Assembly (NCBI GenBank): GCA_938040315.1
Contig: CALHQW010000015.1
Location: 13,729-77,728 of the forward strand
Length of the DNA stretch: 64,000 nt
Direction of reading: 5' to 3'
Source of the DNA: an uncultured bacterium
GTDB lineage: Bacteria; Hydrothermota; Tepidihabitantia; Tepidihabitantales; DTDR01
In this document: one piece after another, positions 7,698-25,228 of the stretch
How the letters are laid out: the number at the start of each line of letters is the position of its first letter
Numbering within the stretch: the stretch's first letter is position 1
The notes under the pieces: model-generated
What the model was told of the DNA's origin: nothing
Databases searched by the model: none
The model's input: only the letters and a program-made list of their open reading frames with translations
Program-made: the position numbers and the translations under genes

Positions 7698-8427
7698 GAG
7701 ACTTTTTATATTTCTTCTATTTTTTATTCTTAGTTGTACCAAAAGAAATATGGTAGAACTAAAAGAGAAAAATGTAGAAGAGTTATTTAAAACCGGACTT
7801 AAATTAATGAACGAAAGTAAATATGAGAGGGCAATAAAGTATTTTAATAAAATTGTTAACGAATACCCTCACTCTGGTTATCTTATTAAATCTCAGTTTC
7901 TTTTAGCCGAGTGTTATTTTCAAAAAAAGGATTATGAAAAGGCTAAATTGGAATACGAATTTTATATGAAAACTTTTCCTTATGCCGAAGATTACGAAAA
8001 TGCTTTTTACAAAAGTTTAATTTGCAATTTAAAGTTATTTAAAAAATCACAAAGAATCTCAATCTTAGAGGAATTGAAAGAAAATTTTTTAGCCTTTAAG
8101 AAAAGTTATCCCGAAGGGCAATTTTCTAAAGAAATCCAAAGTTATGTAAATACTATTGATTCCTTAATAGCCAAAAATTTTTTTGATATTGCCTTTTTAT
8201 ATTACAAAAATGGTGAGTTAAATCCAGCAAAAATCTATTTTGAATATGTAATAAATAATTTTCCTAATACTTCTTTTAAATTTCATTCTTTATATTATTT
8301 AGCCGAAATTTCTTATAAAAATAATGAGAGAGAAAAAGTAGAAAATTATCTAAAAGAGATTATTAAAGAAGGAAAGGATAATTTGAAATTGAAAGCCCAA
8401 AAATTATTAACAAAATGGAAAAAATAG
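7690..8427 (+). CDS. TPR-repeat lipoprotein, BamD/YfiO-like outer-membrane assembly factor
   Basis: Lipobox FFILSC. TPR-like helical repeats (AECYFQKKDYEKA...). Size and position are typical of BamD. Confidence 0.45.
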   Translation: MYKRLFIFLLFFILSCTKRNMVELKEKNVEELFKTGLKLMNESKYERAIKYFNKIVNEYPHSGYLIKSQFLLAECYFQKKDYEKAKLEYEFYMKTFPYAEDYENAFYKSLICNLKLFKKSQRISILEELKENFLAFKKSYPEGQFSKEIQSYVNTIDSLIAKNFFDIAFLYYKNGELNPAKIYFEYVINNFPNTSFKFHSLYYLAEISYKNNEREKVENYLKEIIKEGKDNLKLKAQKLLTKWKK

Positions 8428-9011
8428 GAATTTTCGGTGGCACTTTTGACCCACCTCATATCGCCCATTTAATAATCGCTGAAGAAGTGCTTTTTTCTCT
8501 TTCTTTATCAAAAATCCTTTTTATTCCTGCTTACTATCCGCCTCATAAAACAACCGTAACTTCTTTTGAACATCGTTTTAAAATGCTCACTTTGGCAATT
8601 GAAAATAACGAAAAATTTACTATCTCCGACATTGAAAAAAAGATAAAAGAGAATTATAATATTAAAACTTCTTATAGTATTTATACAATAAGGGAATTGA
8701 AAAAAATCTATTTTAGGGATAAGTTATATTTTATTATTGGCTCTGATCAATATATAGAATTTAAGAATTGGTATAAACCAGAAGAAATTTTGAAGGAGAT
8801 AAAGATTTGTGTCTTTTTGCGCTATGGGTATCCTCTAAAGGAAGAAGTAAAAGAAGAGTATAAAGAAAATTTAATATTTTTACAGGTTTCCCAACTAGCA
8901 ATTAATTCAAGCGAAATTAGAGAAAGAATTAAAAATAATAAACCTTTTAGATATTTTTTGCCTGAGAAGGTTTATAAGTATATTATTGAAAACAAATTAT
9001 ATTTAACTTAA
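8415..9011 (+). CDS. nadD: nicotinate-nucleotide adenylyltransferase
   Basis: GIFGGTFDPPHIAHL (the HxGH nucleotidyltransferase motif), ...GSDQ. Confidence 0.8.
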   Translation: MEKIGIFGGTFDPPHIAHLIIAEEVLFSLSLSKILFIPAYYPPHKTTVTSFEHRFKMLTLAIENNEKFTISDIEKKIKENYNIKTSYSIYTIRELKKIYFRDKLYFIIGSDQYIEFKNWYKPEEILKEIKICVFLRYGYPLKEEVKEEYKENLIFLQVSQLAINSSEIRERIKNNKPFRYFLPEKVYKYIIENKLYLT

Positions 9012-9023
9012 AGGAGGAAAAAA

Positions 9024-9317
9024 ATGTTTGATTTCCTTTATGCTCAAAATACTCCTCAACAAGTTAATCCTTTGATTTCTTTTTTGCCATTAATTTTAAT
9101 TATTTTAGTTTTTTATTTCTTATTAGTCATTCCTCAGCAAAGAAGACAAAAGAAACATCAAGAAATGATAAATAGTTTAAAAAGAGGCGATAAGGTAGTA
9201 ACAACCGGTGGAATCCACGGCATCATTTCAGACATCAAAGAGACTACTTTTATTTTAAAAATTGATGAAAATACTAAAATTGAAATCGAAAAAAACTCCA
9301 TAGCTTATAAAAAATAG
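9024..9317 (+). CDS. yajC: preprotein translocase subunit YajC
   Basis: 97 aa with a single TM. C-terminus VVTTGGIHGIISDI...ENTKIEIEK matches the YajC family. RBS aaggaggaaaaaaATG. Confidence 0.75.
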   Translation: MFDFLYAQNTPQQVNPLISFLPLILIILVFYFLLVIPQQRRQKKHQEMINSLKRGDKVVTTGGIHGIISDIKETTFILKIDENTKIEIEKNSIAYKK

Positions 9318-9322
9318 TTAAA

Positions 9323-9814
9323 ATGGAAGATAAACCCAAATTGATACTATATCCCAATCCCTTTCTTAGAAAGAAAGCATCAAAGATTAAAAAGATTGAT
9401 GAAAAAATTTTCCAATTAGTAAAAGAGATGGAAAGAACTCTTTTATATTACGAAGGTTTGGGATTAGCAGCCAACCAAATAGGTATTTTAAAATCCCTTT
9501 TTATTGTTAATCTTAGCAGCAATAAGGGAAAACCAAAAATTCTATCGATAATCAATCCGGAAATCCTTCACCAAGAAGGAGAAATTGAAGATTACGAAGG
9601 TTGTCTCTCTATTCCTAATATTCGGGAAATTATTTTAAGACCTAAAATTGTAATTATTAAAGGAATTACTTTAGAAGAAAAAGAGATAACTTTAGAGGGT
9701 AAAAATCTTCTTGCTCGATGTTTTCTTCATGAATATGAACATCTTTGCGGAATTCTTTTTATTGACCATTTAAGTGAACTGAGAAAGAAATTTATTTTTA
9801 ATCAGAGTGAATGA
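9323..9814 (+). CDS. def: peptide deformylase
   Basis: GLGLAANQIG, EGCLSIP, HEYEHL (the three PDF motifs). Confidence 0.85.
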   Translation: MEDKPKLILYPNPFLRKKASKIKKIDEKIFQLVKEMERTLLYYEGLGLAANQIGILKSLFIVNLSSNKGKPKILSIINPEILHQEGEIEDYEGCLSIPNIREIILRPKIVIIKGITLEEKEITLEGKNLLARCFLHEYEHLCGILFIDHLSELRKKFIFNQSE

Positions 9815-10749
9815 GGATTGTTTTTTTTGGCAGTGATGAGTTAGGAATACCGGGGTTAGAGGTTTTATTAGAAAATAATTACGAAATTATCGGAATAATC
9901 ACAACTCCCGATAAACCAAAAGGAAGAGGATTAAAAATTTTACCAAATCCAATAAAAGAAAAAGCAGAAAAACTCTCCTTAAAAATTTTTCAGCCGGAAG
10001 ATCCAAATAATAAAGATTTTATTCTTATTTTAAAAGAGTTAAAACCCTTTTTAGGAATATTAATTAGTTACGGAAAAATTCTAAAGAGAGAATTAATAGA
10101 AATTTTTGAAAAAGGAATTATTAATATTCATTTCTCTCTTTTGCCAAAATATCGAGGTGCCGCACCAATTCAAAGAGCCTTAATGAATGGTGAAAAAGAA
10201 ACAGGCCTTTCTGCTTTTCTTTTAAATGAAAAATTAGATGCTGGACCAATTATTTATCAAGAGAAAATTATAATAAAAGAAAATGACGACTTTGGCAGTC
10301 TTAAAGAAAAATTAAAAGAATTAAGTAAGAGTTTTCTTATTAAAGCAATTAATAAATATCTAAATAATGAGCCCCTTATTTACCAAAACGAAGAATTGGC
10401 TACTTATGCTCCCAAAATCAAAAAAGAAGAGAGAAAAATAAATTGGGAAAAAGAAAAAAAGAGGATTTTTAATCAAATCCGTGCCCTCTCACCAGCGCCT
10501 GGTGCTTATACTTTTTTTCGTAATGAGCAATTAATTATATTAAAATCAGAAATTCCAGAAAAAGAACCGATAGAAAATTCCGAATTTCCTTGCGGAGGAG
10601 TTTTAATCTTTAATAAGAATCTTTATGTAAAATGTGCTGATTCCTTTTTGATAATCAAACAACTAAAACCAAGCGGGAAGAAACCTATTAACGATAAGGA
10701 TTTTATTAATGGCTATCGGGTAAAAACAGGCGATGCGTTTGTTAATTAA
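9811..10749 (+). CDS. fmt: methionyl-tRNA formyltransferase
   Basis: MRIVFFGSDELG..., NIHFSLLPKYRGAAPIQRALMNGEKETG. ATGA overlap with def. Confidence 0.85.
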   Translation: MRIVFFGSDELGIPGLEVLLENNYEIIGIITTPDKPKGRGLKILPNPIKEKAEKLSLKIFQPEDPNNKDFILILKELKPFLGILISYGKILKRELIEIFEKGIINIHFSLLPKYRGAAPIQRALMNGEKETGLSAFLLNEKLDAGPIIYQEKIIIKENDDFGSLKEKLKELSKSFLIKAINKYLNNEPLIYQNEELATYAPKIKKEERKINWEKEKKRIFNQIRALSPAPGAYTFFRNEQLIILKSEIPEKEPIENSEFPCGGVLIFNKNLYVKCADSFLIIKQLKPSGKKPINDKDFINGYRVKTGDAFVN

Positions 10750-11455
10750 AATCCTAATAGTCCCTTTGATGATATTTTTCGGATTTATCCTTAATCTATT
10801 TTTATATGGATTTTTAATCCTACCAATATTTGTTAAAACTTCTTGGGAAGTGAGGGTTCCTAATTTAATTGGTTTAACCCCTAAAGAAGCAAAAGAATTG
10901 CTTAAAAAAGTTAATTTAAAATTAGATGAAAAAATTATCTATGAAGAAAGAAATTTTCCTGAAGGAAGAATCTTTAAACAAAAACCTGAACCCAATAGCA
11001 AAATAAAAAGAGGTCAATATGTGAAAATAATTGTTTCTTCTGGACCAAAATTTATTAAAATACCAGAAATCTATGAAACCGATTTAGAAAAAACTATTCA
11101 ACTTTTAACCCAATATGATTTAAAGGTAAAAGTAGAATCAATTTATAACTCCCAACAAGAAGAAAAAATTATCAAAGTGGATCCTCCCCCTAATACCAAA
11201 GTTCGTCAAGGAAGTACAGTAAAAATTTATTTTGCCACTAAAGAGACTAAAATTTTCCCGATGCCTAATCTTTATAGTTTAGTAATTAATGAAGCAAGAA
11301 AAATTCTTGAAGAATATTCCCTTTATATCAAAGAAATTAGAGAAACGAAAAGTAATGAAAAAAGAGGTGTTGTGATTTTCCAATATCCTGAAGAAGGAAC
11401 CCTTGTAAAACCAGGAGATTCAGTTATAATAATTATTTCTAAAGGAAACGAATAA
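10733..11455 (+). CDS. membrane-anchored PASTA-repeat protein
   Basis: N-terminal TM, then about 70-aa repeats of the type IGLTPKEAKELLKK...KIIVSSGP and PNLYSLVINEARKILE (PASTA-like). Confidence 0.4.
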   Translation: MRLLIKILIVPLMIFFGFILNLFLYGFLILPIFVKTSWEVRVPNLIGLTPKEAKELLKKVNLKLDEKIIYEERNFPEGRIFKQKPEPNSKIKRGQYVKIIVSSGPKFIKIPEIYETDLEKTIQLLTQYDLKVKVESIYNSQQEEKIIKVDPPPNTKVRQGSTVKIYFATKETKIFPMPNLYSLVINEARKILEEYSLYIKEIRETKSNEKRGVVIFQYPEEGTLVKPGDSVIIIISKGNE

Positions 11456-11457
11456 TT

Positions 11458-12108
11458 ATGCATATTTCTGCCTCAATATTAAATTGTAATTTTTTAAAAT
11501 TAGAAGAAGAAATTAAAAAAGTAGAAGCGGCAGGTATTGATTCTTTTCATTTAGATGTGATGGATGGGCATTTTGTTTCTAATCTCAGTTTTGGAACACC
11601 AATCTTTAATGCTTTAAAAAAGATAACACAAAAACCTATTATTACTCATTTAATGGTTTTTTCGCCAATAAAAATGGTTGAATGGTTCATTCCTGGTTCT
11701 TTAGAAATAATTTTTCACTATGAAGCAATGAAAGATGAGAAAGAGTTAAAAGCAACGATTAATAAGATTAAAAATAATAATTTGAAATGCGGAATCGCCT
11801 TAAATCCGCCAACACCGATTGAAAATATTCTCCCCTATCTTTCCGAATTTAACGAAATTCTAATAATGAGCGTCAACCCTGGTTTTGGCGGGCAAAAATT
11901 TATTCCCGAAACAATAAAAAAAATTGAGCAATTAAGAAATCTGATTAATAAAGAAAATTTAAAAATTACGCTTTCAGTAGATGGTGGTGTAGGACCGGAA
12001 AATAGTAAATTATTAATCACTGCCGGTGTTGACAAATTAGTAGTCGGCAGTGCCATTTTTAGAGAAAAGGATTATTCTTTAATAGTGAAAAAACTTAAAA
12101 ATGTTTGA
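11458..12108 (+). CDS. rpe: ribulose-phosphate 3-epimerase
   Basis: FHLDVMDGHFVSNLSFG, MSVNPGFGGQKF, SVDGG. Confidence 0.85.
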   Translation: MHISASILNCNFLKLEEEIKKVEAAGIDSFHLDVMDGHFVSNLSFGTPIFNALKKITQKPIITHLMVFSPIKMVEWFIPGSLEIIFHYEAMKDEKELKATINKIKNNNLKCGIALNPPTPIENILPYLSEFNEILIMSVNPGFGGQKFIPETIKKIEQLRNLINKENLKITLSVDGGVGPENSKLLITAGVDKLVVGSAIFREKDYSLIVKKLKNV

Positions 12109-13381
12109 TATAATTGCTGACCGATTTATAAAATTACAAAGAAAAATTCTCGGTTATGGTCGTCTTTCTCAAAAGGAAATTTCTGATACTTTAAGAGAAA
12201 TTAGAATTTTACTCTTGGATGCCGATGTTAATTACAAAGTAGTTGGAGAATTCCTGCGTTCTTTAGAAGAAAAATTGAAATCAGAAAAAATTGCCTCTTC
12301 TTTGAAACCTGGTGAATTAGTAATTGTTGAATTATATAAAGAAATAGTAAAATTACTTGGCGAAAAACCAACAAAACTTAATTTAACTAACCAATTTAAT
12401 ATCCTTTGTTTATTCGGTCTCCAGGGCACCGGAAAGACCACTACTGCGGCAAAATTGGCTTATTATTATAAAGAAAAAAAACCTTTATTAGTTGCTTGTG
12501 ATCCAAAAAGACCAGCTGCCTCTTTACAATTACAAAAATTAGCAGAAAGGGTAAAAGTTGATTTTATTCCGGTAAAAGAAGATATATTTACAACTGCCAA
12601 AGTGGCTTTAGAATTTGCTAAAAAGAATAATAATCAATTAGTCCTTTTTGATACCGCTGGCCGACTGCATATCGATGAAGAATTAATGAAGGAACTAAAA
12701 GAATTCAAAGAAAAAATAAAACCTAATTATAATCTTTTAGTAGTTGATGGAATGGTTGGCCAGGATGCGGTTAATCAGGCAAAAGAATTTAACGAAAAAA
12801 TTGGAATTGACGGTGTAATTATCACTAAAATGGATGGCGATGCTAAAGGTGGTGCTTGTCTTTCTATAAGAGCAGTAAGTAAGGCACCGATAATCTTTAT
12901 TGGCATTGGCGAAAAAATCGATGATTTACAAGAATTTCATCCCGATCGAATTGCTAGTCGTATTTTAGGAAGGGGCGATATAAAAACTTTGATAGAAAAA
13001 GTCGAAAGCGCAGTAAATAGAGAAGACCAAGAAAAACTAACTAAGAAATTTTTAAAAGGCGAATTTAATTTAGAAGATTTTTTAAATCAACTAAAAATTA
13101 TTAAAAAAATGGGAAGCTTACAAAAAATTCTCTCTATGATGCCTATCCCGGAACTGAAAGTAATAAATTTTGATGAAAAGGAAATTATAAAAATGGAAGC
13201 AATTATTTTATCAATGACAAAAGAAGAAAGAAGAAATCCTAAAATTATTGATGGAAGTAGGAAAAAAAGGATTGCTTTGGGTAGCGGAACAACTGTTGCC
13301 GATGTCAATCGGCTACTTAACGATTTTTTTCAAGCCCAGAAATTAGCAAAACTTTTTAAGGATAAAAGGAAAATATTTTAA
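12101..13381 (+). CDS. ffh: signal recognition particle protein Ffh
   Basis: GLQGTGKTTTAAKLA, DTAGR, TKMDGDAKGG, and a Met-rich M-domain. Confidence 0.9.
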   Translation: MFDIIADRFIKLQRKILGYGRLSQKEISDTLREIRILLLDADVNYKVVGEFLRSLEEKLKSEKIASSLKPGELVIVELYKEIVKLLGEKPTKLNLTNQFNILCLFGLQGTGKTTTAAKLAYYYKEKKPLLVACDPKRPAASLQLQKLAERVKVDFIPVKEDIFTTAKVALEFAKKNNNQLVLFDTAGRLHIDEELMKELKEFKEKIKPNYNLLVVDGMVGQDAVNQAKEFNEKIGIDGVIITKMDGDAKGGACLSIRAVSKAPIIFIGIGEKIDDLQEFHPDRIASRILGRGDIKTLIEKVESAVNREDQEKLTKKFLKGEFNLEDFLNQLKIIKKMGSLQKILSMMPIPELKVINFDEKEIIKMEAIILSMTKEERRNPKIIDGSRKKRIALGSGTTVADVNRLLNDFFQAQKLAKLFKDKRKIF

Positions 13382-13396
13382 GAAGGAGGAAAAAAA

Positions 13397-13876
13397 ATGA
13401 TTTTTTATTCAATAAATGAAGTATTAGAAATGGCTATCCAAATTGAAAAAAGTGGTTATCAGTTTTATTTAAAATCAAAAGAAAAAACTAATGATAAGAA
13501 ATTAAAAGAACTTTTTAACTTCTTATCTATTGAAGAATTAAGGCACAGGGAAACCTTTGAAGGAATTAAAAACAAATTAAAAACAACTCCCTATACTTTA
13601 CCTTATAACTGGGAAGAAGCCAAATTATACTTAAAAGCAATTACCGACTCCCATTTTTTTAAAGGAGAAGATAAAGTTTTAAATCTAATGGAAAAAACCG
13701 AAAATGAAAAGGAATTAATCAATTTGGCAATTGCTTTTGAAAAAGAAACTTTAATTTTCTATTATGAAATATTAAATCTGGTTGGGGAAGAAGAAAAATC
13801 AACAGTTTTAAAATTAATTCAAGAAGAAAAAAACCATATTAAAAAATTAGAAACAATAAAGGAAGAAAAGATATGA
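13397..13876 (+). CDS. erythrin/rubrerythrin-like diiron ferritin-like protein (paralog 1 of 3)
   Basis: Four-helix-bundle ligand pattern E(IEKSG)...EELRHRE...E(FEKET)...EEKNHIKKLE. No rubredoxin domain. Confidence 0.6.
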   Translation: MIFYSINEVLEMAIQIEKSGYQFYLKSKEKTNDKKLKELFNFLSIEELRHRETFEGIKNKLKTTPYTLPYNWEEAKLYLKAITDSHFFKGEDKVLNLMEKTENEKELINLAIAFEKETLIFYYEILNLVGEEEKSTVLKLIQEEKNHIKKLETIKEEKI

Positions 13877-14376
13877 ATGAAATTTTTAAATTGGCGATCG
13901 ACTTAGAAAAAGAAGCTTTGCTTTCCTATCTTCGTTTTGGACACCAAATAAAAGATTTAAGAGGTAAAGACCTTTTTATCCGTTTAGCAATGGACGAATT
14001 TGAACATATCGAAATCTTAGAGAAAGAATCCCAATATTTTGAGAAAGAGAAAGGATTTAAAGAATTAGAAATTCCTCTAACGGAAATTGAAAAAATTGTA
14101 GATAATTTAAAACCCTTGCTACCAAAAGAAAAAAAAATATCTGATTTAAAGGAGTTAAATATTTTACAAATGGCCTTAACATTAGAGAAAAAAAGTATCG
14201 ATTTTTATCAAAACCAAGAAAAAGCAAGCAAAGAAGAAGTATCTAAGAAGATCTGGAAAAGATTAAAAGAAGTTGAAGAAGGTCATTATCGACTTATTCA
14301 AGCAGAAATTGATTATTTAACAAAAACTGGTTTTTGGTTTGATTTTCGGGAATTTAGTTTAGAAGTGGAGAAGTAA
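13873..14376 (+). CDS. erythrin/rubrerythrin-like diiron ferritin-like protein (paralog 2 of 3)
   Basis: AIDLEKEA...DEFEHIEILE...ALTLEKKSIDFY...EEGHYRLIQAE. ATGA overlap with paralog 1. Confidence 0.6.
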   Translation: MNEIFKLAIDLEKEALLSYLRFGHQIKDLRGKDLFIRLAMDEFEHIEILEKESQYFEKEKGFKELEIPLTEIEKIVDNLKPLLPKEKKISDLKELNILQMALTLEKKSIDFYQNQEKASKEEVSKKIWKRLKEVEEGHYRLIQAEIDYLTKTGFWFDFREFSLEVEK

Positions 14377-14394
14377 TTTGAAAAGGAGGAATTT

Positions 14395-14886
14395 ATGGAA
14401 GAAACTTTGACTTCTTTAGAAATATTACAAAAAGCAATAAAATCAGAGGTCGAAGCCTTCCAATTTTATAATAAACTGCAAGAGGTAGTTGAAAATAAAG
14501 TTTTAAAAAAGAAGTTGAATTTTTTAAAAAGGGAAGAAAAAAAACATGAGAAATTATTAAGAAATATTTTCAAAAATCAGTTTCCTAAAGAAAAAATAAA
14601 ATTGCCCAAAAAAGGCTTTACTCCTTTACCAACAATTGAGAAAATAGAAAAATTATCTTTAGAATCCCTTTTGGAAGCAGCAATGGAAGCCGAAGAGATT
14701 TCTGAAAAATTCTATCGGGAAAATTCAATATTAATTAATGATGAAAATAGCAAAAGATTATTAATTTATCTATCTTCAATGGAGAAATCACACTACCAAA
14801 TTTTGAAAACAGAATACGATTTATTAACTAGTTTTACTTCTTACGAGGCTTATAAAAAATTCTCCTTAGAGCATTTAGGACCATGA
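14395..14886 (+). CDS. erythrin/rubrerythrin-like diiron ferritin-like protein (paralog 3 of 3)
   Basis: AIKSEVEAFQFY...REEKKHEKLL...AMEAEEISEKFY...MEKSHYQILKTE. RBS aaaggaggaatttATG. Confidence 0.6.
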   Translation: MEETLTSLEILQKAIKSEVEAFQFYNKLQEVVENKVLKKKLNFLKREEKKHEKLLRNIFKNQFPKEKIKLPKKGFTPLPTIEKIEKLSLESLLEAAMEAEEISEKFYRENSILINDENSKRLLIYLSSMEKSHYQILKTEYDLLTSFTSYEAYKKFSLEHLGP

Positions 14887-16046
14887 AAAAAATATATCTT
14901 GATCATCAAGCTACGACGCCTATCCATCCTGAAGTTCTTTCTTTAATGGAGAATATTCAAAAAGAAATATTTGGCAATCCCCAAAGTTCTCATTATTTCG
15001 GTTTTGAAGCTAAAAAACTGTTAGAAGAGGCAAGAGAAAATATTGCTTCCCTTTTAAATGTTTCTCCTTCGGAAATTTATTTCACTTCCTCTGGGGCTGA
15101 AAGTAATAATTGGGCAATCAAGAAGGTTGCCTTTGCTAACCAAAATAAAGGCAATCATATCATTATTTCCGCAATCGAACATCCTTCAGTAATTCAACCA
15201 GCAAAAAGATTAGAAAAATTGGGGTTTGAAATCACCTATTTGCCAGTTGATAAATATGGTACCATTGATTTAGAAGAGTTAAAAAAGAAAATAAAAAAAG
15301 AAACAATTCTTATTTCTATAATGCATGCCAATTATGAAGTTGGTACAATTGAACCAATCAAAGAAATTGCCGAAATTGCTAAAGAAAATAAAATTATTTT
15401 TCATTCGGACGGTGTGGCAGCAGCAGGTCAATTAAAAATTGATTTAAAAGAACTCGGTGTGGATCTTTATACGATTTCCTCCCATACCTTCTACGGTCCC
15501 AAAGGAGTAGCATTATTATATATCAAAAGGGGAACAAAAATTCAACCATTAATAGAAGGCGGTATTCAAGAAAATAATCGTCGAGCAGGAACCGAAAATT
15601 TGATTGGTATTATTGGTATGGCAAAGGCTTATGAAATTGCCATAAAAGAAATGGAAGAAAGAAAAAATAAGTTAGAAAAATTAAGAAATAGGTTGATAGA
15701 AGAATTACCTAAAAAAATTGATAATATTTATTTAACCGGTCATCCCCAAAATCGTCTACCTAATCATGCTAGTTTTTGTGTTGAGTATGTAGAAGGTGAA
15801 GCAATGGTTTTATATTTAAATCAATATGGAATCGCCTGTGCCTCTGGTTCTGCCTGTTCTTCTAAACAATTAAAGGCTTCTCATGTCCTTTTGGCAATGG
15901 GTATTTCACCAGTCTTAGCCCAGGGTTCTGTTATTTTCACTTTAGGGATCAATAACACTGAAGAAGACATTGACTATCTTTTAGAAGTATTTCCACCAAT
16001 TGTAAAAAGATTAAGAGAAATCTCACCTTTATATAAAATTTCTTGA
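14883..16046 (+). CDS. cysteine desulfurase (IscS/NifS class V aminotransferase)
   Basis: SSHTFYGPKGVALLY (PLP lysine), catalytic-loop Cys in ASGSACSS. ATGA overlap with ferritin-like paralog 3. Confidence 0.85.
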   Translation: MKKIYLDHQATTPIHPEVLSLMENIQKEIFGNPQSSHYFGFEAKKLLEEARENIASLLNVSPSEIYFTSSGAESNNWAIKKVAFANQNKGNHIIISAIEHPSVIQPAKRLEKLGFEITYLPVDKYGTIDLEELKKKIKKETILISIMHANYEVGTIEPIKEIAEIAKENKIIFHSDGVAAAGQLKIDLKELGVDLYTISSHTFYGPKGVALLYIKRGTKIQPLIEGGIQENNRRAGTENLIGIIGMAKAYEIAIKEMEERKNKLEKLRNRLIEELPKKIDNIYLTGHPQNRLPNHASFCVEYVEGEAMVLYLNQYGIACASGSACSSKQLKASHVLLAMGISPVLAQGSVIFTLGINNTEEDIDYLLEVFPPIVKRLREISPLYKIS

Positions 16047-16073
16047 ATCAACTTTATATAAAATTTCTTGAAT
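16027..16073. repeat. perfect tandem duplication of a 22-mer ctttatataaaatttcttgaat (25-bp period) spanning the desulfurase stop codon
   Basis: Copy 1 about 16027-16048, a caa spacer, copy 2 about 16052-16073. Read directly. Confidence 0.7.
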
Positions 16074-16207
16074 TAAAAATTATTTTAAATTATAATAAAA
16101 TAAAATATGAAAAAAGAGAAATTATTTTTCTTTATCGATATTTCTAATTTTATTTTTTTAATATTTTTCTATGTTTTAAAAAACAAACATCAAAGAGGAG
16201 ATGAACG

Positions 16208-16729
16208 ATGAAATTAAAAAATTTAATTTTTATCTTAGTTTTATTTATTTTTATTCCTACCCAAGAAAAAAGGGATACTTTAAAATCTTATAAAAAAGCA
16301 CCGAGCTTTTCTCTTTATAATATTAATAAAGAAAAAATTTATCTTGATTCTCTACTAAATAAAGGACCAATTTTTATTAGTTTTTGGGCGTTGTGGTGTA
16401 AACTTTGTATTCAAGAACTTGATGCTTTTAAAAAAATATATGACCAATATGAAACCTTAGGGCTTAAAGTTTTAGCAATTTCAGAGGACGGACCAAGAGC
16501 AGTAAATAATATAAAATCTTTTGTCAAAGGGAAAAAATGGAAATATGAAATTTTATTAGACCCGGACGGAAAAATAAGAGAACTCTTTGGTGTTGGTTCA
16601 ACTCTGCCAACAAGTTTTATCCTTGATAAAGAAGGAAATATCCGTTTGATTTCGCGAGGTTATAAAAAAGGTGATGAAAAAAAATTTGTAAAAGTTATTG
16701 AAGAGATAATTAATGAAGCGAAAGAGTAA
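16208..16729 (+). CDS. secreted TlpA/redoxin-family thiol-disulfide oxidoreductase (thioredoxin fold, CxxC)
   Basis: Signal peptide MKLKNLIFILVLFIF. Active site FWALWCKLC. RBS aagaggag 8 nt upstream. Confidence 0.65.
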   Translation: MKLKNLIFILVLFIFIPTQEKRDTLKSYKKAPSFSLYNINKEKIYLDSLLNKGPIFISFWALWCKLCIQELDAFKKIYDQYETLGLKVLAISEDGPRAVNNIKSFVKGKKWKYEILLDPDGKIRELFGVGSTLPTSFILDKEGNIRLISRGYKKGDEKKFVKVIEEIINEAKE

Positions 16730-18179
16730 ATTTGTTTTATTTATTCTTCTCTTCTTTTATCTTTATTCCCAAGAAGAAACACCGATTGAAAAAAAGTTAA
16801 ACCTTTCTGGCGAAATAAAAGGAGAGTATTGGCTTTGGACAAAAGAAAATAAAGATAAAAGTTTTAAATTTTCCGACCATTTTGAAGGAAAATTCCGTTT
16901 TTTAATCAACTATGAAAACATTTATTTACGAACCGGTATTTTTCTTTATCAACCAAGTTTACCTAAGAAATCTTTGAAAGAATATTATTATAATTTTGAA
17001 TATTGCCATCCCCAAGCAGAATTTTTAATAGGTAATTTTTATCAGGTTTTTGGTCGGGGTCTTACTTTTCGTTCTTATTTTAATGAAGACTTTCGTTATG
17101 ATAAAGTTTTATTTGGTGGTAGGGCTATCCTCCATATTTTTAAATCTGATATTCTTCTCTTTGCTGGAAAAATGAAAAATATTATCTTTCAAGAAAATAA
17201 ATACCAATATGAAAATGATACTACCGATCAATTAAGGGGTGGAGAAATCGTTATCTATCCTTTTCCCCACTTAGAAATTGGTGGTCGTTATATAAGATTA
17301 AATAAAGAAAAAGATATAACACCTCGAGCTTTTGCAGAAATATTTGGACCAAGTATTTCTTTTACTTATAATTTTTTTGATCTATATTATGAATTTTGTG
17401 AAAAACTTTCTACCCGAGAAGTGCTTGGTGGCAGAAAAAAAGGATACGGTCATTATTTAGTAACTTCTTTTACTTTTACTGGCTTCGGCCTCAGTTTAGA
17501 AGGAATGAAATATGATAGCATCGATTTTGGTGGTGAAGGATATCGCTATAATGATGTACCGACACCAAGTAGAGAGGGAATATCAATTAATCGGGGAAGA
17601 GACGAAAAAGGAGGTAGTATTTCCTTAAATTTCACACCTTTTGATTTCTTAAATTATGATGGTAGTTACGGGTACTTACAAACTTATAAAAAAGATAAAT
17701 ATCTTAAAGAACTCATTAATAAAATTAATTTTAAAAAGAATGAAGATTTTAATAATACCTTTATTTTTGAATACCTCCAGAAAAAAGGGATAGAAATAAA
17801 AGTAGAGTTAACAGAGGAGTTAAAATTTATTAATGAAACTAAATTGTCCTTTAATAATCATACCTTTAATTTAGAGATACCTTTAAATTTTGTTTCTGAT
17901 GATACTTTGAAATACAAAGATTTTGGAGTAATTTTTGAATATCAAAACAATCCCTATTTTACATTAACTATGAATTATCAAAAAACAACTACAAAGATTC
18001 CTAAATATGATTATGAAGATAAATGGTTATTATTTGAAGGGACTTTTTTTATAACCCAAAATATAACTTGGCGAATAAGAGTTGGGCAAGAAAGAGGTGG
18101 ACTTATTTGTTCCGGTGGTGTCTGTCGTTATGAAGCACCTTTTAATGGAATGAAAATTTCTCTACAAGCGAGATTTTGA
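16713..18179 (+). CDS. hypothetical outer-membrane beta-barrel protein
   Basis: Signal peptide MKRKSKFVLFILLFFYLYSQE. Alternating aromatic/polar beta-strand pattern throughout. C-terminal ...SLQARF (terminal Phe, OMP-like). 17-nt overlap with the redoxin gene. Confidence 0.4.
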   Translation: MKRKSKFVLFILLFFYLYSQEETPIEKKLNLSGEIKGEYWLWTKENKDKSFKFSDHFEGKFRFLINYENIYLRTGIFLYQPSLPKKSLKEYYYNFEYCHPQAEFLIGNFYQVFGRGLTFRSYFNEDFRYDKVLFGGRAILHIFKSDILLFAGKMKNIIFQENKYQYENDTTDQLRGGEIVIYPFPHLEIGGRYIRLNKEKDITPRAFAEIFGPSISFTYNFFDLYYEFCEKLSTREVLGGRKKGYGHYLVTSFTFTGFGLSLEGMKYDSIDFGGEGYRYNDVPTPSREGISINRGRDEKGGSISLNFTPFDFLNYDGSYGYLQTYKKDKYLKELINKINFKKNEDFNNTFIFEYLQKKGIEIKVELTEELKFINETKLSFNNHTFNLEIPLNFVSDDTLKYKDFGVIFEYQNNPYFTLTMNYQKTTTKIPKYDYEDKWLLFEGTFFITQNITWRIRVGQERGGLICSGGVCRYEAPFNGMKISLQARF

Positions 18180-18313
18180 TGAGAAAATATCTCTTTTTTA
18201 TTTCTTTAGTTATTGGCGTTATTTTCTTAATTATAGCATTAAGATCAGAACAGATTAAAGAAGTATTTAATACTGGCATCTTGCTTTGCCTTTCTTGTAT
18301 TGGTTTAGGATGA
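18179..18313 (+). CDS. 44-aa single-TM membrane peptide with C-terminal CxxC (not in the ORF track)
   Basis: ATG shares a base with the barrel gene stop (TGATG), and its TGA overlaps the ATG of the downstream polyferredoxin (ATGA). Translation MRKYLFFISLVIGVIFLIIALRSEQIKEVFNTGILLCLSCIGLG. No strong RBS. Confidence 0.35.
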   Translation: MRKYLFFISLVIGVIFLIIALRSEQIKEVFNTGILLCLSCIGLG

Positions 18314-19269
18314 GACCCTTTAGAATTTCCCAAATAATTTTTACAATATTAATTAACAGTTATATTTTAGTATTCTTTCAAAAAACTTTAATTTATACTG
18401 GTTATTTAAAGAGTTTTTTAGTGCCAATATTAAATTGTTGGTCAGCACCAACTACTTGGTTTTCTTGTCCCTTAGGTGCCTATCAACATTTTATAATAAT
18501 TAAAGATTTTCCTTTTTATGTACTTGGTCTATTTTTAATAATCGGTGCTTTTATTGGTAGAATGGCTTGTGGCTGGTTATGTCCTTTTGGACTTTTTCAA
18601 GATCTTCTTTTTAAAATAACAAAGAAAAAAATCTCCCTTCCCCAACTTGCTCCTTTATTTACAATTATACTATTTCTATTCTCTTATCTTTTTATCTGGC
18701 TTAAATTCAATTATCTTTCTTTAACTATCAAAATTTTAATTATCTTAATCTCTACAATTATTGGTTTTCTTTTAGATATTTTTTTAAAAATCCGTATAAA
18801 AATTTTTGATCTTACTTTTCTAAAATATTTTTTTCTTTTATTTTTAGCAACTTTTATTGTTTTTTTTACTAATGAACCCTGGTTTTGTAAAGTTTGCCCC
18901 CAAGGTACCTTAGAAGCCGGTGTTCCTTTAATATTATACGACCCCGAAAATAGTTTAAAGACGATGGCTGGTTTATTTTTCTACTTCAAAATTTTAATAT
19001 TTATCATTATTTTTATTTTAGCAATTTTTATAAAAAGAATATTCTGTAAACTTATCTGTCCGATTGGCGCAATCTATTCTTTCTTCAATAAAATAAGCCT
19101 CTTTCATTTAAAAGTTGATAAAGAAAAATGTGGTAAATGTAATATTTGTGTAAAAGTTTGTCCAACTGATATAAATGTCTACGAGAATGCCAATCAAACT
19201 GATTGTATAAGATGTTTGGAATGCTATTATCAATGCCCCAAAAAAGTAATTAAATTAAAATTTTCTTAA
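18310..19269 (+). CDS. NapH/MauN/NosR-type membrane polyferredoxin (4 CX3CP motifs plus two 4Fe-4S ferredoxin motifs)
   Basis: CPLGAYQ, CGWLCPFGLFQD, CKVCPQGTLEAG, CKLICPIGAIYS, then CGKCNICVKVCP and CIRCLECYYQCP. Multiple TM helices. Start placed at MRPF (ATGA coupling); the track start is 18286. Confidence 0.6.
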   Translation: MRPFRISQIIFTILINSYILVFFQKTLIYTGYLKSFLVPILNCWSAPTTWFSCPLGAYQHFIIIKDFPFYVLGLFLIIGAFIGRMACGWLCPFGLFQDLLFKITKKKISLPQLAPLFTIILFLFSYLFIWLKFNYLSLTIKILIILISTIIGFLLDIFLKIRIKIFDLTFLKYFFLLFLATFIVFFTNEPWFCKVCPQGTLEAGVPLILYDPENSLKTMAGLFFYFKILIFIIIFILAIFIKRIFCKLICPIGAIYSFFNKISLFHLKVDKEKCGKCNICVKVCPTDINVYENANQTDCIRCLECYYQCPKKVIKLKFS

Positions 19270-21616: not shown

Positions 21617-22723
21617 ATGCGTCAATTATTATCAGGAAACGAAGCCACGGCAATCGGAGCAATAAAGGCGGGAATAAGATTCTTTGCCGGCTACCCAATC
21701 ACCCCTTCTACGGAAATTGCTGAATATATGGCACGGGAATTACCGAAAATTGGCGGAGTTTTTATCCAAATGGAAGACGAAATTGCTTCCATCAATGCGG
21801 TAATTGGTGCCAGTGCCAGTGGCATGAAGGCAATGACTGCAACTTCCGGACCAGGTTTTTCCTTAATGCAAGAAGGAATTGGTTATGCTTGTATGGCAGA
21901 AATACCCTGTCTTATTGTAAATGTTCAAAGAGGAGGTCCAGCCACTGGCTTACCAACAAAACCCTCTCAAAGTGATGTGATGCAGACCAGATGGGGTACC
22001 CACGGAGACCATCCGATTGTCGTTTTTTACCCTTACAATGTTTTAGAAAGTTTTTATTTAACAGTTAAAGCAATCAATACTGCCTATTTTTTACGAGTAC
22101 CGGTAATTTTACTTACTGATGAAATAATTGCTCACATGCGGGAAGCCGTTGAATTACCAGAAGAAGTTGAAATTTATCAACCAAAAAGAAAGAAAAAAAG
22201 TCCTGAAGAATTCCTATATTATTCAGAAGAGACAATCTATGATAGTGAAGTTGCCTATTTTGGCGAAGGCTATCGGATTCATATTTCTGGACTAACCCAT
22301 CGAGAAGATGGGTTTCCAACTAATAAGCCTGAGGTAATTAAAAGAAAATTAGATAGGCTAAAAAGAAAAATTGAAGATAATAAAGAAAAATTATGGGATT
22401 TAGAATATCAAGATATTGGTGCGGAAGTTTGCCTTATCTCTTACGGAATTTCTGCCCGAACCGCTTTAGAGGCAAAATATATTTTTGAAAAAGAAGAGAA
22501 AAGAGCATTAGGTTATATCCGCCTTAAAACAATCTGGCCTTTCCCAGATAAACCATTGAGAGCTCTATTAAAAAGTGCTAAAAAGGTTATTGTCGTGGAA
22601 ATGAACCAGGGACAATTAATCAACGAAATTGAAAGAGCAATAAGTCCAGAGATTGAAATTATTGGTGTCCAAAGATATGATGGTGAAATAATAACACCGG
22701 AAGAAATATTAGCAGTGATATGA
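21617..22723 (+). CDS. korA: 2-oxoglutarate/2-oxoacid:ferredoxin oxidoreductase alpha subunit
   Basis: LSGNEATAIGAIKAG, GYPITPSTEI, TSGPGFSLMQEGIGYA. Confidence 0.8.
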   Translation: MRQLLSGNEATAIGAIKAGIRFFAGYPITPSTEIAEYMARELPKIGGVFIQMEDEIASINAVIGASASGMKAMTATSGPGFSLMQEGIGYACMAEIPCLIVNVQRGGPATGLPTKPSQSDVMQTRWGTHGDHPIVVFYPYNVLESFYLTVKAINTAYFLRVPVILLTDEIIAHMREAVELPEEVEIYQPKRKKKSPEEFLYYSEETIYDSEVAYFGEGYRIHISGLTHREDGFPTNKPEVIKRKLDRLKRKIEDNKEKLWDLEYQDIGAEVCLISYGISARTALEAKYIFEKEEKRALGYIRLKTIWPFPDKPLRALLKSAKKVIVVEMNQGQLINEIERAISPEIEIIGVQRYDGEIITPEEILAVI

Positions 22724-22733
22724 AAGAAGAAAT

Positions 22734-23555
22734 ATGAAAGAAGAAATAAAAAATTATTTAAGATTAGATGAAAGATTTCCTCACATTTTATGCCCTGGTT
22801 GCGGTATTGGAACAATCGCTAATATTCTTATAAGAACTTTTAATGAATTAAATTTAGATAAAAATAATATTTGTTTAGTTTCTGGTATTGGCTGTTCCTC
22901 CCGAATTCCCGGATATATTGATTGTGATACTTTTCATACACTCCATGGCCGAGCAATCCCTTGCGCAATTGGAGTAAAATTGGCAAGACCGTATTTAAAA
23001 GTGATTATTATTGGCGGAGACGGCGATATTTTAGCGATTGGTTTAAGTCATTTTATCCATGCGGCGAGAAGAAATATTGATTTAACTGTAATAATTGTTA
23101 ATAATTATAATTACGGAATGACCGGTGGTCAAGTTTCACCCACTACTCCTAAAGGTAAATTTACTTACACTACCCCTTACGGTAATCTTGAAGAAGAATT
23201 TAATATTTATGAAATATCAAAAAGCGCTGGCGCAATTTTCTTTGCTCGCTCCACTACTTATCATGTTACTCATTTAAAAAAAGTGCTTAAAAAAGCACTT
23301 ACTAAAAAAGGGTTTTCAGTGGTTGAAATCCTTTCCCAATGCCCTACTCTTTATGGTCGTTTGAATAGATTAGGAGATGCTGTTAAAATGTTGGAGGAGT
23401 TCAAAAACAGGACAATTGATATTTCTCTTATTAAAGAACCTGGAGAAATACCTTCTGATAAAATTATAATTGGCATCTTATTGGATAGAGAAAGAGAGGA
23501 GTATTGTGAAAAATATGAAAGATTAAGAAAAGCAATAAATGAGAAAAGAGATTAG
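22734..23555 (+). CDS. korB: 2-oxoacid:ferredoxin oxidoreductase beta subunit (TPP-binding)
   Basis: CPGCGIG, GIGCSSR, IIIGGDGD (TPP motif). Confidence 0.8.
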   Translation: MKEEIKNYLRLDERFPHILCPGCGIGTIANILIRTFNELNLDKNNICLVSGIGCSSRIPGYIDCDTFHTLHGRAIPCAIGVKLARPYLKVIIIGGDGDILAIGLSHFIHAARRNIDLTVIIVNNYNYGMTGGQVSPTTPKGKFTYTTPYGNLEEEFNIYEISKSAGAIFFARSTTYHVTHLKKVLKKALTKKGFSVVEILSQCPTLYGRLNRLGDAVKMLEEFKNRTIDISLIKEPGEIPSDKIIIGILLDREREEYCEKYERLRKAINEKRD

Positions 23556-24072
23556 AATTGCTGGAACAGGTGGACAAGGGATTATTTTTGCGGCGATTGT
23601 TTTAGCCGAGGCAGCGGGTATTTATGAAAATAAATACGTTACCCAAATTCAATCTTACGGTCCGGAAGCACGAGGAGGCGCCAGTAAAGCGGATATAATT
23701 ATTAGTGACCAACCTATCTATTTTCCCCAAACTCAAGAGTTAGATATTTTAGTTTGTCTCAGCCAACAATCCCTTGATGAATATGTTAAAAAATTAAAAG
23801 AGAAAGGTACCCTTTTTATTGATTCTTATTATTGTAAAAACTTCAATAAGGAGAAAATAAAAACCTACGCTTTTCCTTTTTCATTGGTTGCTAAAGAGAA
23901 ATTGGGAAGGGAATTATTTGCTAACATAATTCTTTTAGGCTCCCTTGCTCGTTTTACTAAAATTGTAAGTATTGAATCATTAAAAAAGGCAATCTCCCAC
24001 CGAGTGGCTCCCCAATTTTTAGCAATTAACGAAAAAGCACTAATGTTGGGTTATGAGATCGATCAATTATAA
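23539..24072 (+). CDS. korG: 2-oxoacid:ferredoxin oxidoreductase gamma subunit
   Basis: IRIAGTGGQGII...GPEARGGAS. Confidence 0.7.
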   Translation: MRKEIRIAGTGGQGIIFAAIVLAEAAGIYENKYVTQIQSYGPEARGGASKADIIISDQPIYFPQTQELDILVCLSQQSLDEYVKKLKEKGTLFIDSYYCKNFNKEKIKTYAFPFSLVAKEKLGRELFANIILLGSLARFTKIVSIESLKKAISHRVAPQFLAINEKALMLGYEIDQL

Positions 24073-24487: not shown

Positions 24488-25228
24488 ATGTTTTTATTTA
24501 TTTTATTTTCTTCTATCATTATTAGTTTAATTTCTCTTATTGGTATATTCTTTCTATTTTTTAAAACAAACCTTTTTGAAAAGATTATTTATTATTTAGT
24601 AGCATTTGCCGGTGGTGTCCTTTTTGGCATTGTTTTTTTTCATATTTTAGAAGAAGCAACTGAACTTTTATCTACTTATTTTTTTTCTCTTTTTTTAATA
24701 ATTGGTTTTTCTATCTTTTTTATTTTAGAAAGAATTATTCGTTGGCGCCATTGCCATTTACTCTCAAAATGTGAAATCCATCCAGTTGCTTCTCTTACTC
24801 TTATTGGCGATTCTCTTCATAATTTTATTGATGGCTTAATAATTGCTGCTGGTTATTTAACTTCCTTAAAAACTGGCTTATTAATAACCTTAGGAGTAAT
24901 CTTTCATGAAATACCTCAAGAAATGGGAGATTTCGCAATTCTTATCTATGGTGGTTACAGCAAAAAGAAATCATTAATTTATAATTTTCTTACCGCCCTA
25001 ACTGCTGTTGGTGGCGCAATCGGAGGTTACTTTTTTTTAGAAAAATTTCAATCTTTTTTACCTTTCCTTTTGGCTATTGCCGGTGGTAATTTTCTTTATA
25101 TTGCTTCTTCTGATATTATTCCCGAACTGCATCGAGAAATTGAATTAAAAAAAAGCATTTATTCTTTAATTATTTTTATCTTCGGCATATTTTTAATAGC
25201 AATTTTAACAGAAATTTTTCATCCATAG
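24488..25228 (+). CDS. zupT: ZIP-family divalent metal (zinc) transporter
   Basis: HNFIDGL, HEIPQEMGDFAIL, 8 TM helices. Confidence 0.8.
   Translation: MFLFILFSSIIISLISLIGIFFLFFKTNLFEKIIYYLVAFAGGVLFGIVFFHILEEATELLSTYFFSLFLIIGFSIFFILERIIRWRHCHLLSKCEIHPVASLTLIGDSLHNFIDGLIIAAGYLTSLKTGLLITLGVIFHEIPQEMGDFAILIYGGYSKKKSLIYNFLTALTAVGGAIGGYFFLEKFQSFLPFLLAIAGGNFLYIASSDIIPELHREIELKKSIYSLIIFIFGIFLIAILTEIFHP

Follow-up and report, generated by a model that had tools for sequence, protein, structure and literature searches.

The window analysed here is a stretch of 64,000 nucleotides (nt; G+C ~28%) from an uncultured bacterium of the GTDB lineage Hydrothermota (contig CALHQW010000015.1). Homologues with named sources assign the organism to candidate division WOR-3. 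The window contains three tandem genes, E1, E2 and E3, each encoding a small ferritin-like diiron protein, and directly after them a gene encoding a NifS/IscS-like protein. The content of interest at this locus is the conserved pairing of archaeoferritin-like arrays with a NifS/IscS lacking the lysine that binds pyridoxal phosphate (PLP), joined in relatives by IscU. A sequence-only reading of the window had reported three tandem paralogous open reading frames, and these are present on the forward strand at exactly the positions it gave (Table 1). The same reading had the genes translationally coupled to one another and to the nifS-like gene. Reading of the sequence bears this out for E1/E2 and for E3/nifS-like, which share ATGA stop/start overlaps, but not for E2/E3, which are separated by 18 nt and where E3 has its own AAGGAGG.

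Table 1. Features at and downstream of the E1-E2-E3 locus (window positions; aa, amino acids)
Feature	Position	Strand	Description	Pfam score	Diiron site
Shine-Dalgarno-like GAAGGAGG	13382-13389	+	7 nt 5' of E1 start, directly after ffh stop codon (13379-13381)		
E1	13397-13876	+	159 aa; TM1526-like subfamily ferritin-like diiron protein	PF02915, 41 bits	E17, E47/H50, E115, E144/H147; tyrosines Y24, Y122; Cys-free
E2	13873-14376	+	167 aa; 'GFWF-tail' subfamily ferritin-like diiron protein	PF02915, 31.3 bits	E12, E42/H45, E105, E135/H138
Shine-Dalgarno AAGGAGG for E3	14383-14389	+	within 18-nt E2-E3 spacer		
E3	14395-14886	+	163 aa; PF1190/archaeoferritin-like subfamily diiron protein	PF02915, 68.1 bits	E18, E48/H51, E100, E130/H133
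NifS/IscS-like protein	14883-16046	+	387 aa; class-V aminotransferase fold	PF00266, 277 bits	
Direct repeat	16023-16091		25-nt nifS-like 3' end and its copy		
Promoter-like TTGAAT-17-TATAAT	16068-16096		ahead of tlpA-like gene		
TlpA/ResA-type gene	16208-16729		lipoprotein-like thiol-disulfide oxidoreductase		
DUF6029 gene	16713-18179		overlaps TlpA/ResA-type gene		
NapH/NosR-like gene	18286-19269		membrane polyferredoxin; TTG start		
2-oxoacid:ferredoxin oxidoreductase genes	21617-24072		three subunits (POR_N/PFOR_II, TPP_enzyme_C, POR gamma)		
ZIP-family gene	24488-25228		metal transporter		

Upstream of E1 lies a co-directional, tightly packed housekeeping cluster (8415-13381) comprising nadD-like, yajC, def, fmt, a gene for a PASTA-domain protein, rpe and ffh. 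The ffh stop codon (ending at 13381) is 15 nt from the E1 start, and the trio may be co-transcribed with ffh. The E1-E2-E3-nifS block follows ffh in synteny in WOR-3 relatives, with 64-91% aa identity (loci L001-L004, L010, L011, L014, L015 and L094); the triple array, a search for which the sequence-only reading had proposed, is conserved in exactly this form in a WOR-3 clade. The ratio of nonsynonymous to synonymous substitution rates (dN/dS), calculated pairwise against three relatives, is ~0.03-0.13 across E1, E2, E3 and the nifS-like gene (E1, ~0.10-0.12; nifS-like, ~0.06-0.08) and 0.05-0.06 for ffh; these figures are rough, as synonymous sites are near saturation. Given the syntenic orthologues and dN/dS values similar to those of the neighbouring ffh, the four are real genes under strong purifying selection. 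An Rfam search of the window returned one tRNA only, and nothing near the E1-E3 locus.

The sequence-only reading had credited each paralog with a complete E...ExxH...E...ExxH set. The set is indeed complete: it is invariant in a three-way alignment of E1, E2 and E3, and the six ligands are invariant in 144/144 homologues (unique sequences from 93 loci). Two further tyrosines, in E-x6-Y motifs, are both present in E1, E2 and E3; among the homologues these positions are Tyr in 131 and 122 sequences respectively, and Phe in the remainder. It was also correct that no rubredoxin or other domain is fused to these proteins. None of the three contains a cysteine, none of the 144 relatives has two CxxC motifs, and PF02915 (Rubrerythrin) is the sole domain detected in each, with scores above the gathering cut-off of 22.8 bits.

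The C-termini differ between subfamilies. E2 has a conserved C-terminal motif, LIQAEIDYLTKTGFWFDFREFSLE, and in an alignment of its subfamily the C-terminus is nearly invariant (LIQAEIDYIxKTGFWFxxREFSLE; window 14335-14376). AlphaFold2 models E2 (mean pLDDT 83.7) as a four-helix bundle in which a long connection joins helices B and C; the tail (residues 155-167) is modelled without structure, with pLDDT below 50. In the E3 family the C-terminal residues are H-(L/I/V)-G-P with hardly any variation, HLGP in E3 itself. Further subfamilies have aromatic C-terminal tails of their own, for example GGVWxWGE and AYWExARFQPF. These subfamily-specific tails look like docking peptides.

Similarity searches place the three proteins close to archaeal and Thermotoga proteins of the COG1633 type. 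In single-sequence searches of the PDB, E3 matches 2fzf (Pyrococcus furiosus PF1190) with E = 2.6e-28, E1 matches 1vjx (T. maritima TM1526) over its full length with E = 2e-13, and E2 matches 2fzf with E = 4.7e-6. A profile built from 30 members of the E2 family matches 2fzf (8.8e-10), 1vjx (8.8e-7), the Mn catalase KatB (Alr3090; 8e-6) and 2oh3 (7e-5), followed more weakly by bacterioferritins (~1e-3), symerythrin (6e-3) and rubrerythrin (0.03); sulerythrin was not detected in this search. In a Foldseek search with the E2 model, the best matches are 3fse, 2fzf, 2oh3 and 1vjx, then bacterioferritins and ferritins, and rubrerythrin is not among the top 50.

The label 'erythrin', in the sense of a rubrerythrin minus its rubredoxin domain, is thus loosely right at most. 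In sulerythrin, Glu95 lies beside Glu92 on helix C, and the iron shifts toward Glu95 on oxidation; the same oxidation-linked shift occurs in rubrerythrin and symerythrin (PMC12851003). None of the 144 homologues of E1-E3 has the second helix-C glutamate of this ExxE pair; the +3 residue is A, S, T or G, and the -3 residue is L, I, M, R, A or F. In Desulfovibrio vulgaris rubrerythrin the equivalent glutamates are numbered E94 and E97. With a six-ligand site and no ExxE in any homologue, E1-E3 are not rubrerythrins that have lost rubredoxin; judged by ligand set and homology, they are COG1633/'archaeoferritin-like' ferritin-like proteins with a six-ligand, bacterioferritin-type site. Membership of the true rubrerythrins or erythrins was rejected on the ExxE result and on the poor ranking of rubrerythrin in profile and fold searches. 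Comparison with rubrerythrin and ferritin-like families, as the sequence-only reading had proposed, leaves the ligands intact but finds the nearest relatives elsewhere, in PF1190, TM1526 and the bacterioferritins.

Two other assignments were considered and rejected. Matches to encapsulin cargo proteins (EncFtn/EncB, E ~1e-3) are far under the cut-offs and are ascribed to the common ferritin-like fold; no encapsulin shell gene is present among the Pfam-annotated neighbour genes. Similarity to the MbfA-type iron exporter is restricted to its N-terminal ferritin-like domain (28-40 bits against an NCBIfam cut-off of 450), and the VIT1 membrane domain is absent.

The only characterised relative of E1-E3 is archaeoferritin (AFR, PF1196) of P. 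furiosus, an organism which has several such paralogs (PMC3401498). AFR shares more than 30% identity and the E-x6-Y/ExxH motifs with PF1190; it is monomeric when no iron is present, oxidises Fe(II), and forms a reversible assembly with a ferric core inside (PMC3401498). E1-E3 share with AFR and PF1190 a stand-alone length of ~160-175 aa, the four-helix bundle, the E-x6-Y/ExxH/E-x6-Y/ExxH pattern and the lack of a rubredoxin domain. The comparison with AFR is made through PF1190 and published motifs, and ferroxidase activity and iron-induced oligomerisation are known for PF1196 in vitro only. AFR was studied as a single protein, whereas E1 (TM1526-like) and E2 (GFWF tail) belong to other subfamilies. 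We know of no description of an operon link between AFR and NifS or IscU. TM1526 (1vjx), 2oh3 and 3fse, which include the full-length match of E1 and the best fold matches of the E2 model, are COG1633 structures from structural genomics without an assigned function.

Rubrerythrin, sulerythrin and symerythrin resemble E1-E3 in belonging to PF02915, in their four-helix-bundle diiron-carboxylate fold and in their association with oxidative-stress genes; E1-E3 differ from them in lacking ExxE and the rubredoxin domain, and the similarity is marginal. Bacterioferritins, which form 24-mer shells, share the six-ligand ferroxidase-type site and provide the next-best sequence and fold matches. Their haem ligand is Met52, which lies inside the first ExxH (E-M-x-H). 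The corresponding motif is E-L-R-H in E1, E-F-E-H in E2 and E-K-K-H in E3, without the haem-ligand Met. E1-E3 also differ from bacterioferritins in their 30-45-residue loop between helices B and C and in the subfamily-specific tails. A heteromer has a precedent in heteromeric bacterioferritins and ferritins (Bfr/Ftn), where tandem paralogs assemble together.

E1, E2 and E3 are only distantly related to one another. The three-way alignment gives pairwise identities of 26-35%, the 144-sequence alignment 20-25%, and hidden Markov models separate the three families, with self scores above 180 bits and cross scores of ~30-60 bits. Average-linkage clustering at ~32% identity divides the sequences into 11 subfamilies, with E1, E2 and E3 each in a different one. 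E1 is in cluster 2, which has orthologues in WOR-3, Latescibacterota and Aerophobetes; the orthologue in an Aerophobetes metagenome-assembled genome (MAG) is 50% identical. The E2 subfamily has 741 cluster representatives at E <= 1e-3, and E2 orthologues across WOR-3 and Latescibacteria are 43-49% identical. Since orthologues in other phyla (~50%) are closer than E1, E2 and E3 are to each other (20-35%), the duplications are old rather than recent, as the sequence-only reading had argued.

Arrays of two to five paralogs are a general habit of this protein group in related phyla. An E2-profile scan of one genome per species yielded 80 loci, and a metagenome scan with a 9-sequence E3 alignment yielded 80 further loci; the phylum names used for array loci come from record titles. 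E1-E2-E3-NifS is the arrangement of the window clade (WOR-3). A longer form, (e)-E1-E1-E2-E3-NifS-IscU-Zn ribbon-DsrE-TusA, is found in WOR-3 loci L022 and L071, and a 150-aa paralog-E2-E3-NifS-IscU array in L025, from an uncultured bacterium. E1-E2-IscU is found in WOR-3 and Latescibacterota (L016-L021, L023 and L024), and E2-E2'-IscU in WOR-3 and unclassified bacteria (L043, L049-L051 and L092). Other arrangements are a 150-aa paralog-E2 (nine loci, various taxa) and E2-E2'-E3' (eight loci in KSB1, Zhuqueibacterota and 'Cytophagia'). A paralog is adjacent in 29 of 55 E2 loci; E2 stands alone, in various taxa, in about half.

The arrays are often followed by genes whose products assemble iron-sulfur (Fe-S) clusters. 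Counting non-redundant loci with at least two genes downstream, NifS or NifU_N is encoded among the next two non-paralog downstream genes in 15/42 E3 loci and 15/55 E2 loci; by our own estimate, the chance expectation for NifS/IscU within two genes is well under 1%. The association is common to at least five array compositions (E1-E2-E3, E1-E1-E2-E3, E1-E2, E2-E2' and E1-E3), and that such varied arrays share it speaks for a functional link to NifS/IscU. E3 is the member which directly abuts the nifS-like gene in many lineages, with a stop/start overlap in the window clade, L022, L071 and L096-L098; the E3/nifS-like ATGA coupling is kept across clades in which the NifS-like protein is only 51-62% identical to that of the window. 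In relatives L022, L025, L071, L095-L098, L106 and L107, iscU is directly downstream, its identity confirmed by PF01592 (NifU_N). A literature search found no description of a linkage between ferritin-like and NifS/IscU genes.

The link is repeated in independent architectures that combine Fe-S assembly genes with genes for defence against reactive oxygen species (ROS). In L005 a ROS cluster is followed by E1, E3, a small membrane protein gene, nifS and iscU. In L008, from an Aerophobetes MAG, the order is superoxide reductase (SOR), NifS, NifU, TusA, DsrE and, as a pair of ferritin-like paralogs, an unclustered 171-aa protein and E1, then FeoAB and DtxR.

Two other genes recur in these neighbourhoods. 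In the relatives, iscU is always followed, often with an overlap, by a gene for a 55-60-aa Cys-rich double zinc-ribbon protein (PF12773/PF13248, under cut-off; L017:9003-9170, L022:10576-10749, L043:9423-9605 and L095:8218-8400), and DsrE-like and TusA genes are often next. Recurrent in the NifS/IscU operons, this double zinc-ribbon protein lacks an annotation. A gene for a ~280-aa xylose-isomerase-like TIM-barrel protein (PF01261, AP_endonuc_2; endonuclease IV-like) recurs in unrelated lineages, both beside E2-only loci (L028:5431-6270, and in the same position in L048, L064, L070, L074 and L077) and upstream of E1/E3 arrays (L005:4503-5357, L137 and L165).

The protein encoded after E3 had been taken for a cysteine desulfurase. 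The class-V aminotransferase fold and homology to type I cysteine desulfurases are confirmed by PF00266 and by desulfurase matches in the PDB, of which the best is 9wep (2.2e-125) and the second-best family is Archaeoglobus fulgidus IscS2 (4eb5/4hvk; 2.3e-115). The score against the NifS model TIGR03402 is 507.8, under the cut-off of 530.75. In cysteine desulfurases the conserved lysine forms the PLP internal aldimine and takes part in acid-base catalysis (PMC8918507). In the window protein this residue is replaced: alignment puts Thr202 (codon 15486-15488, motif SSHTFYGPKG) opposite the Lys of 'SAHK' in 9wep. Ala179 occupies the position equivalent to Gln183. With Thr in place of the PLP-binding Lys, the protein is probably no active cysteine desulfurase. 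The catalytic-loop cysteine, Cys325 (codon 15855-15857, SGSAC), is kept, and is Cys in 32/32 homologues. Strong purifying selection indicates that the gene is functional; going by these residues, the product is probably a functional but non-catalytic scaffold partner.

Lysine loss is widespread among these proteins. Of 32 full-length array-linked NifS-like proteins, 25 lack the lysine and have T, A, Q, G, N or L instead. All but one of the 25 group in one clade, with 51-91% identity to the window protein and T, A, Q, G or N in place of the lysine. A second clade, 39-46% identical, keeps the lysine in L005, L008 (with its duplicate L009), L137, L159, L163 and L168. The remaining lysine-less protein, from L165 (7146-8333), is a member of this second clade (42% identical) with Leu in place of Lys (AHLIHGPKG). 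This independent loss suggests that desulfurase activity has been lost repeatedly in array-linked nifS genes.

There is a precedent for such a protein. A. fulgidus IscS is inactive owing to a Lys-to-Asp change, and gives a Cys ligand to the IscU cluster (PMC7585200; PMC8918507). The A. fulgidus IscS2-IscU system (4eb5, 4eb7 and 4hvk) resembles the one described here in that the window's NifS-like protein also lacks the PLP lysine and keeps the active-site Cys, and in that iscU is directly downstream in the window's relatives. It differs in having Asp at this position, where the window protein has Thr (and relatives have A, Q, G, N or L), and the window has no adjacent iscU. To our knowledge, ferritin-like genes have not been reported to precede the A. 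fulgidus IscS2-IscU genes.

Right after the stop codon of the nifS-like gene there is a direct copy of its final 25 nt, ACCTTTATATAAAATTTCTTGAAT, and the tlpA-like gene has a promoter-like sequence before it. In L014 and L094, which are close relatives, an extra 195-aa gene occupies the post-nifS position, and the repeat may therefore be a deletion or recombination scar, or else an operator.

On this evidence our preferred, tentative interpretation is that E1-E3 form an iron-oxidising, iron-holding or iron-donating module, possibly heteromeric, for sulfide-dependent Fe-S cluster assembly or repair. Fe(II) bound by E1-E3 would be oxidised by O2 or H2O2, as happens in vitro with P. furiosus archaeoferritin, and both Fenton reactants would thereby be removed. 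The iron would be held transiently, possibly by a heteromer of the three paralogs, and an (IscS-like)-IscU scaffold complex could then draw on it. This scaffold would use free sulfide to build clusters, as the A. fulgidus IscS-IscU complex does, and the Cys of the IscS-like protein would serve as a cluster ligand rather than as a persulfide carrier. The module would in this way supply and protect iron for Fe-S assembly and repair in an anaerobe rich in Fe-S enzymes. Limiting Fenton chemistry would account for the neighbouring ROS clusters, and keeping iron for a sulfide-using IscS-like/IscU scaffold would account for the coupling to a lysine-less NifS. We infer, then, ferroxidase and iron-donor activity, a hetero-oligomer, physical coupling to the NifS-like protein and the use of sulfide. 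Heteromeric assembly or partner docking is plausible because different subfamilies repeatedly co-occur, each with its own conserved tail.

A diiron protein that donates iron has been described elsewhere. RIC/YtfE is reported as a diiron-protein precedent for iron donation to the iron-sulfur cluster (ISC) machinery (10.1101/2021.02.18.431928). The analogy is functional only: RIC/YtfE is a small diiron iron donor to ISC with a link to oxidative and nitrosative stress, but its fold is hemerythrin-like and it shares no homology with E1-E3.

The pairing recurs in many uncultured anaerobes, which suggests that the arrays supply or guard iron for Fe-S assembly and are not ordinary rubrerythrin peroxidases. 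The sequence-only reading had guessed at a hetero-oligomeric ferritin-like assembly or at subfunctionalised peroxidases; genomic context points more towards iron handling in Fe-S assembly together with oxidative-stress defence. A stronger form of the proposal is that the arrays are dedicated subunits for iron supply and oxygen protection which act, as heteromers, as the hitherto unrecognised, long-sought physiological iron donor of a minimal, desulfurase-independent machine of lysine-less IscS/NifS and IscU, in WOR-3 and allied anaerobic phyla. In this specific and general form we consider it doubtful.

Even for model organisms it is still disputed what donates the iron for Fe-S assembly, and the iron and sulfur sources of anaerobes with 'minimal' IscS-IscU systems are largely unknown. 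The locus joins two poorly understood parts: archaeoferritin/COG1633 proteins, for which there are several crystal structures and one in-vitro study, and the lysine-less type of IscS/NifS, characterised earlier in Archaeoglobus fulgidus. Their conserved and often codon-overlapping operon yields a concrete hypothesis on iron feeding and oxygen protection which can be tested in vitro. It also corrects what are likely to be the automatic annotations, 'rubrerythrin' and 'cysteine desulfurase'.

Several observations weigh against an iron-donor role in Fe-S assembly. IscU/NifU is not encoded within the 64-kb window, and in this clade the unit ends at the nifS-like gene. A promoter and terminator scan of 12800-16400 is uninformative on operon boundaries, giving 16 promoter-like sites against 15.3 expected and zero terminators. 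About half of the E2 loci have E2 by itself among unrelated genes. The loci are also related by kinship (mostly WOR-3 and allied phyla) and were retrieved by family-specific peptide patterns, so that fewer independent events lie behind the counts than the figures suggest. The sole biochemical reference for the mechanism is archaeoferritin, studied in vitro only. Finally, an oxidative-stress gene (rubredoxin, SOR, rubrerythrin, peroxiredoxin, FprA, ferritin or superoxide dismutase) lies within six genes in 23/42 E3 loci, against the 15/42 with NifS/NifU; both contexts are found in 4/42 and neither in 8/42. For E2 loci the figure is 4/55. The oxidative-stress neighbourhood fits a peroxidase or oxidase role equally well.

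Such a role is the main rival. E1-E3 would be subfunctionalised rubrerythrin-like enzymes which reduce O2 or H2O2 with electrons from free rubredoxin or another donor, and adjacency to the nifS-like gene would reflect a common oxidative-stress regulon. All three proteins do exceed the PF02915 threshold; E3- and E1-type genes elsewhere adjoin genes for rubredoxin, SOR, rubrerythrin, FprA and peroxiredoxin, as the count for E3 loci reflects; and peroxidases without rubredoxin exist in sulerythrin and ferriperoxin (PMC5114695). Set against this, the helix-C ExxE glutamate is missing from every homologue, rubrerythrin is marginal in the profile search and falls outside the leading fold matches, and the window carries neither a rubredoxin gene nor any other ROS gene. 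E3 also stays joined to the nifS-like gene by the ATGA overlap while the NifS-like proteins diverge, which speaks against a merely shared regulon. We regard this explanation as somewhat unlikely, and general storage or other chemistry as less likely still.

General iron storage would make the trio an archaeoferritin-type substitute for ferritin, a shell of mixed paralogs with no specific link to Fe-S assembly. Homology to PF1190 and to archaeoferritin, which stores iron after iron-induced oligomerisation, is in keeping with this, as are the bacterioferritin-type ligand set, the heteromeric Bfr/Ftn shell structures in the PDB (9bts and 9iig) and the fact that no ferritin homologue was found in the 64-kb window. 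However, storage leaves unexplained the repeated, often overlapping placement of several array types upstream of NifS/IscU, and many related loci also carry a canonical ferritin gene, so the arrays are not a simple ferritin replacement; we think it quite improbable. Another metal or reaction, such as a Mn catalase-like activity or a small-molecule oxygenase or hydroxylase, is very improbable: the E2-profile match to KatB and weak Pfam matches to COQ7, MiaE_2 and DUF2383 in some relatives hint at it, but 2fzf, 1vjx and bacterioferritin are matched more strongly, the neighbourhoods have no recurrent substrate-related genes, and the proteins are minimal four-helix bundles without a substrate-binding extension.

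Downstream of the four-gene unit, the window carries the TlpA/ResA-type and DUF6029 genes, both of which are syntenic in L014 and L094, and then the NapH/NosR-like gene. The region 3' of the unit is variable among relatives: in one WOR-3 relative (L010/L011:8147-9064) the nifS-like gene is followed by a gene for a Cas6-type CRISPR endoribonuclease (PF10040). The 2-oxoacid:ferredoxin oxidoreductase subunits and the NapH-like polyferredoxin encoded in the window fit an anaerobe whose need for Fe-S clusters is high. The oxidoreductase genes are followed by the ZIP-family metal transporter gene, and ZIP genes also occur in the ROS/ferritin-like clusters of L005, L115, L116 and L168.

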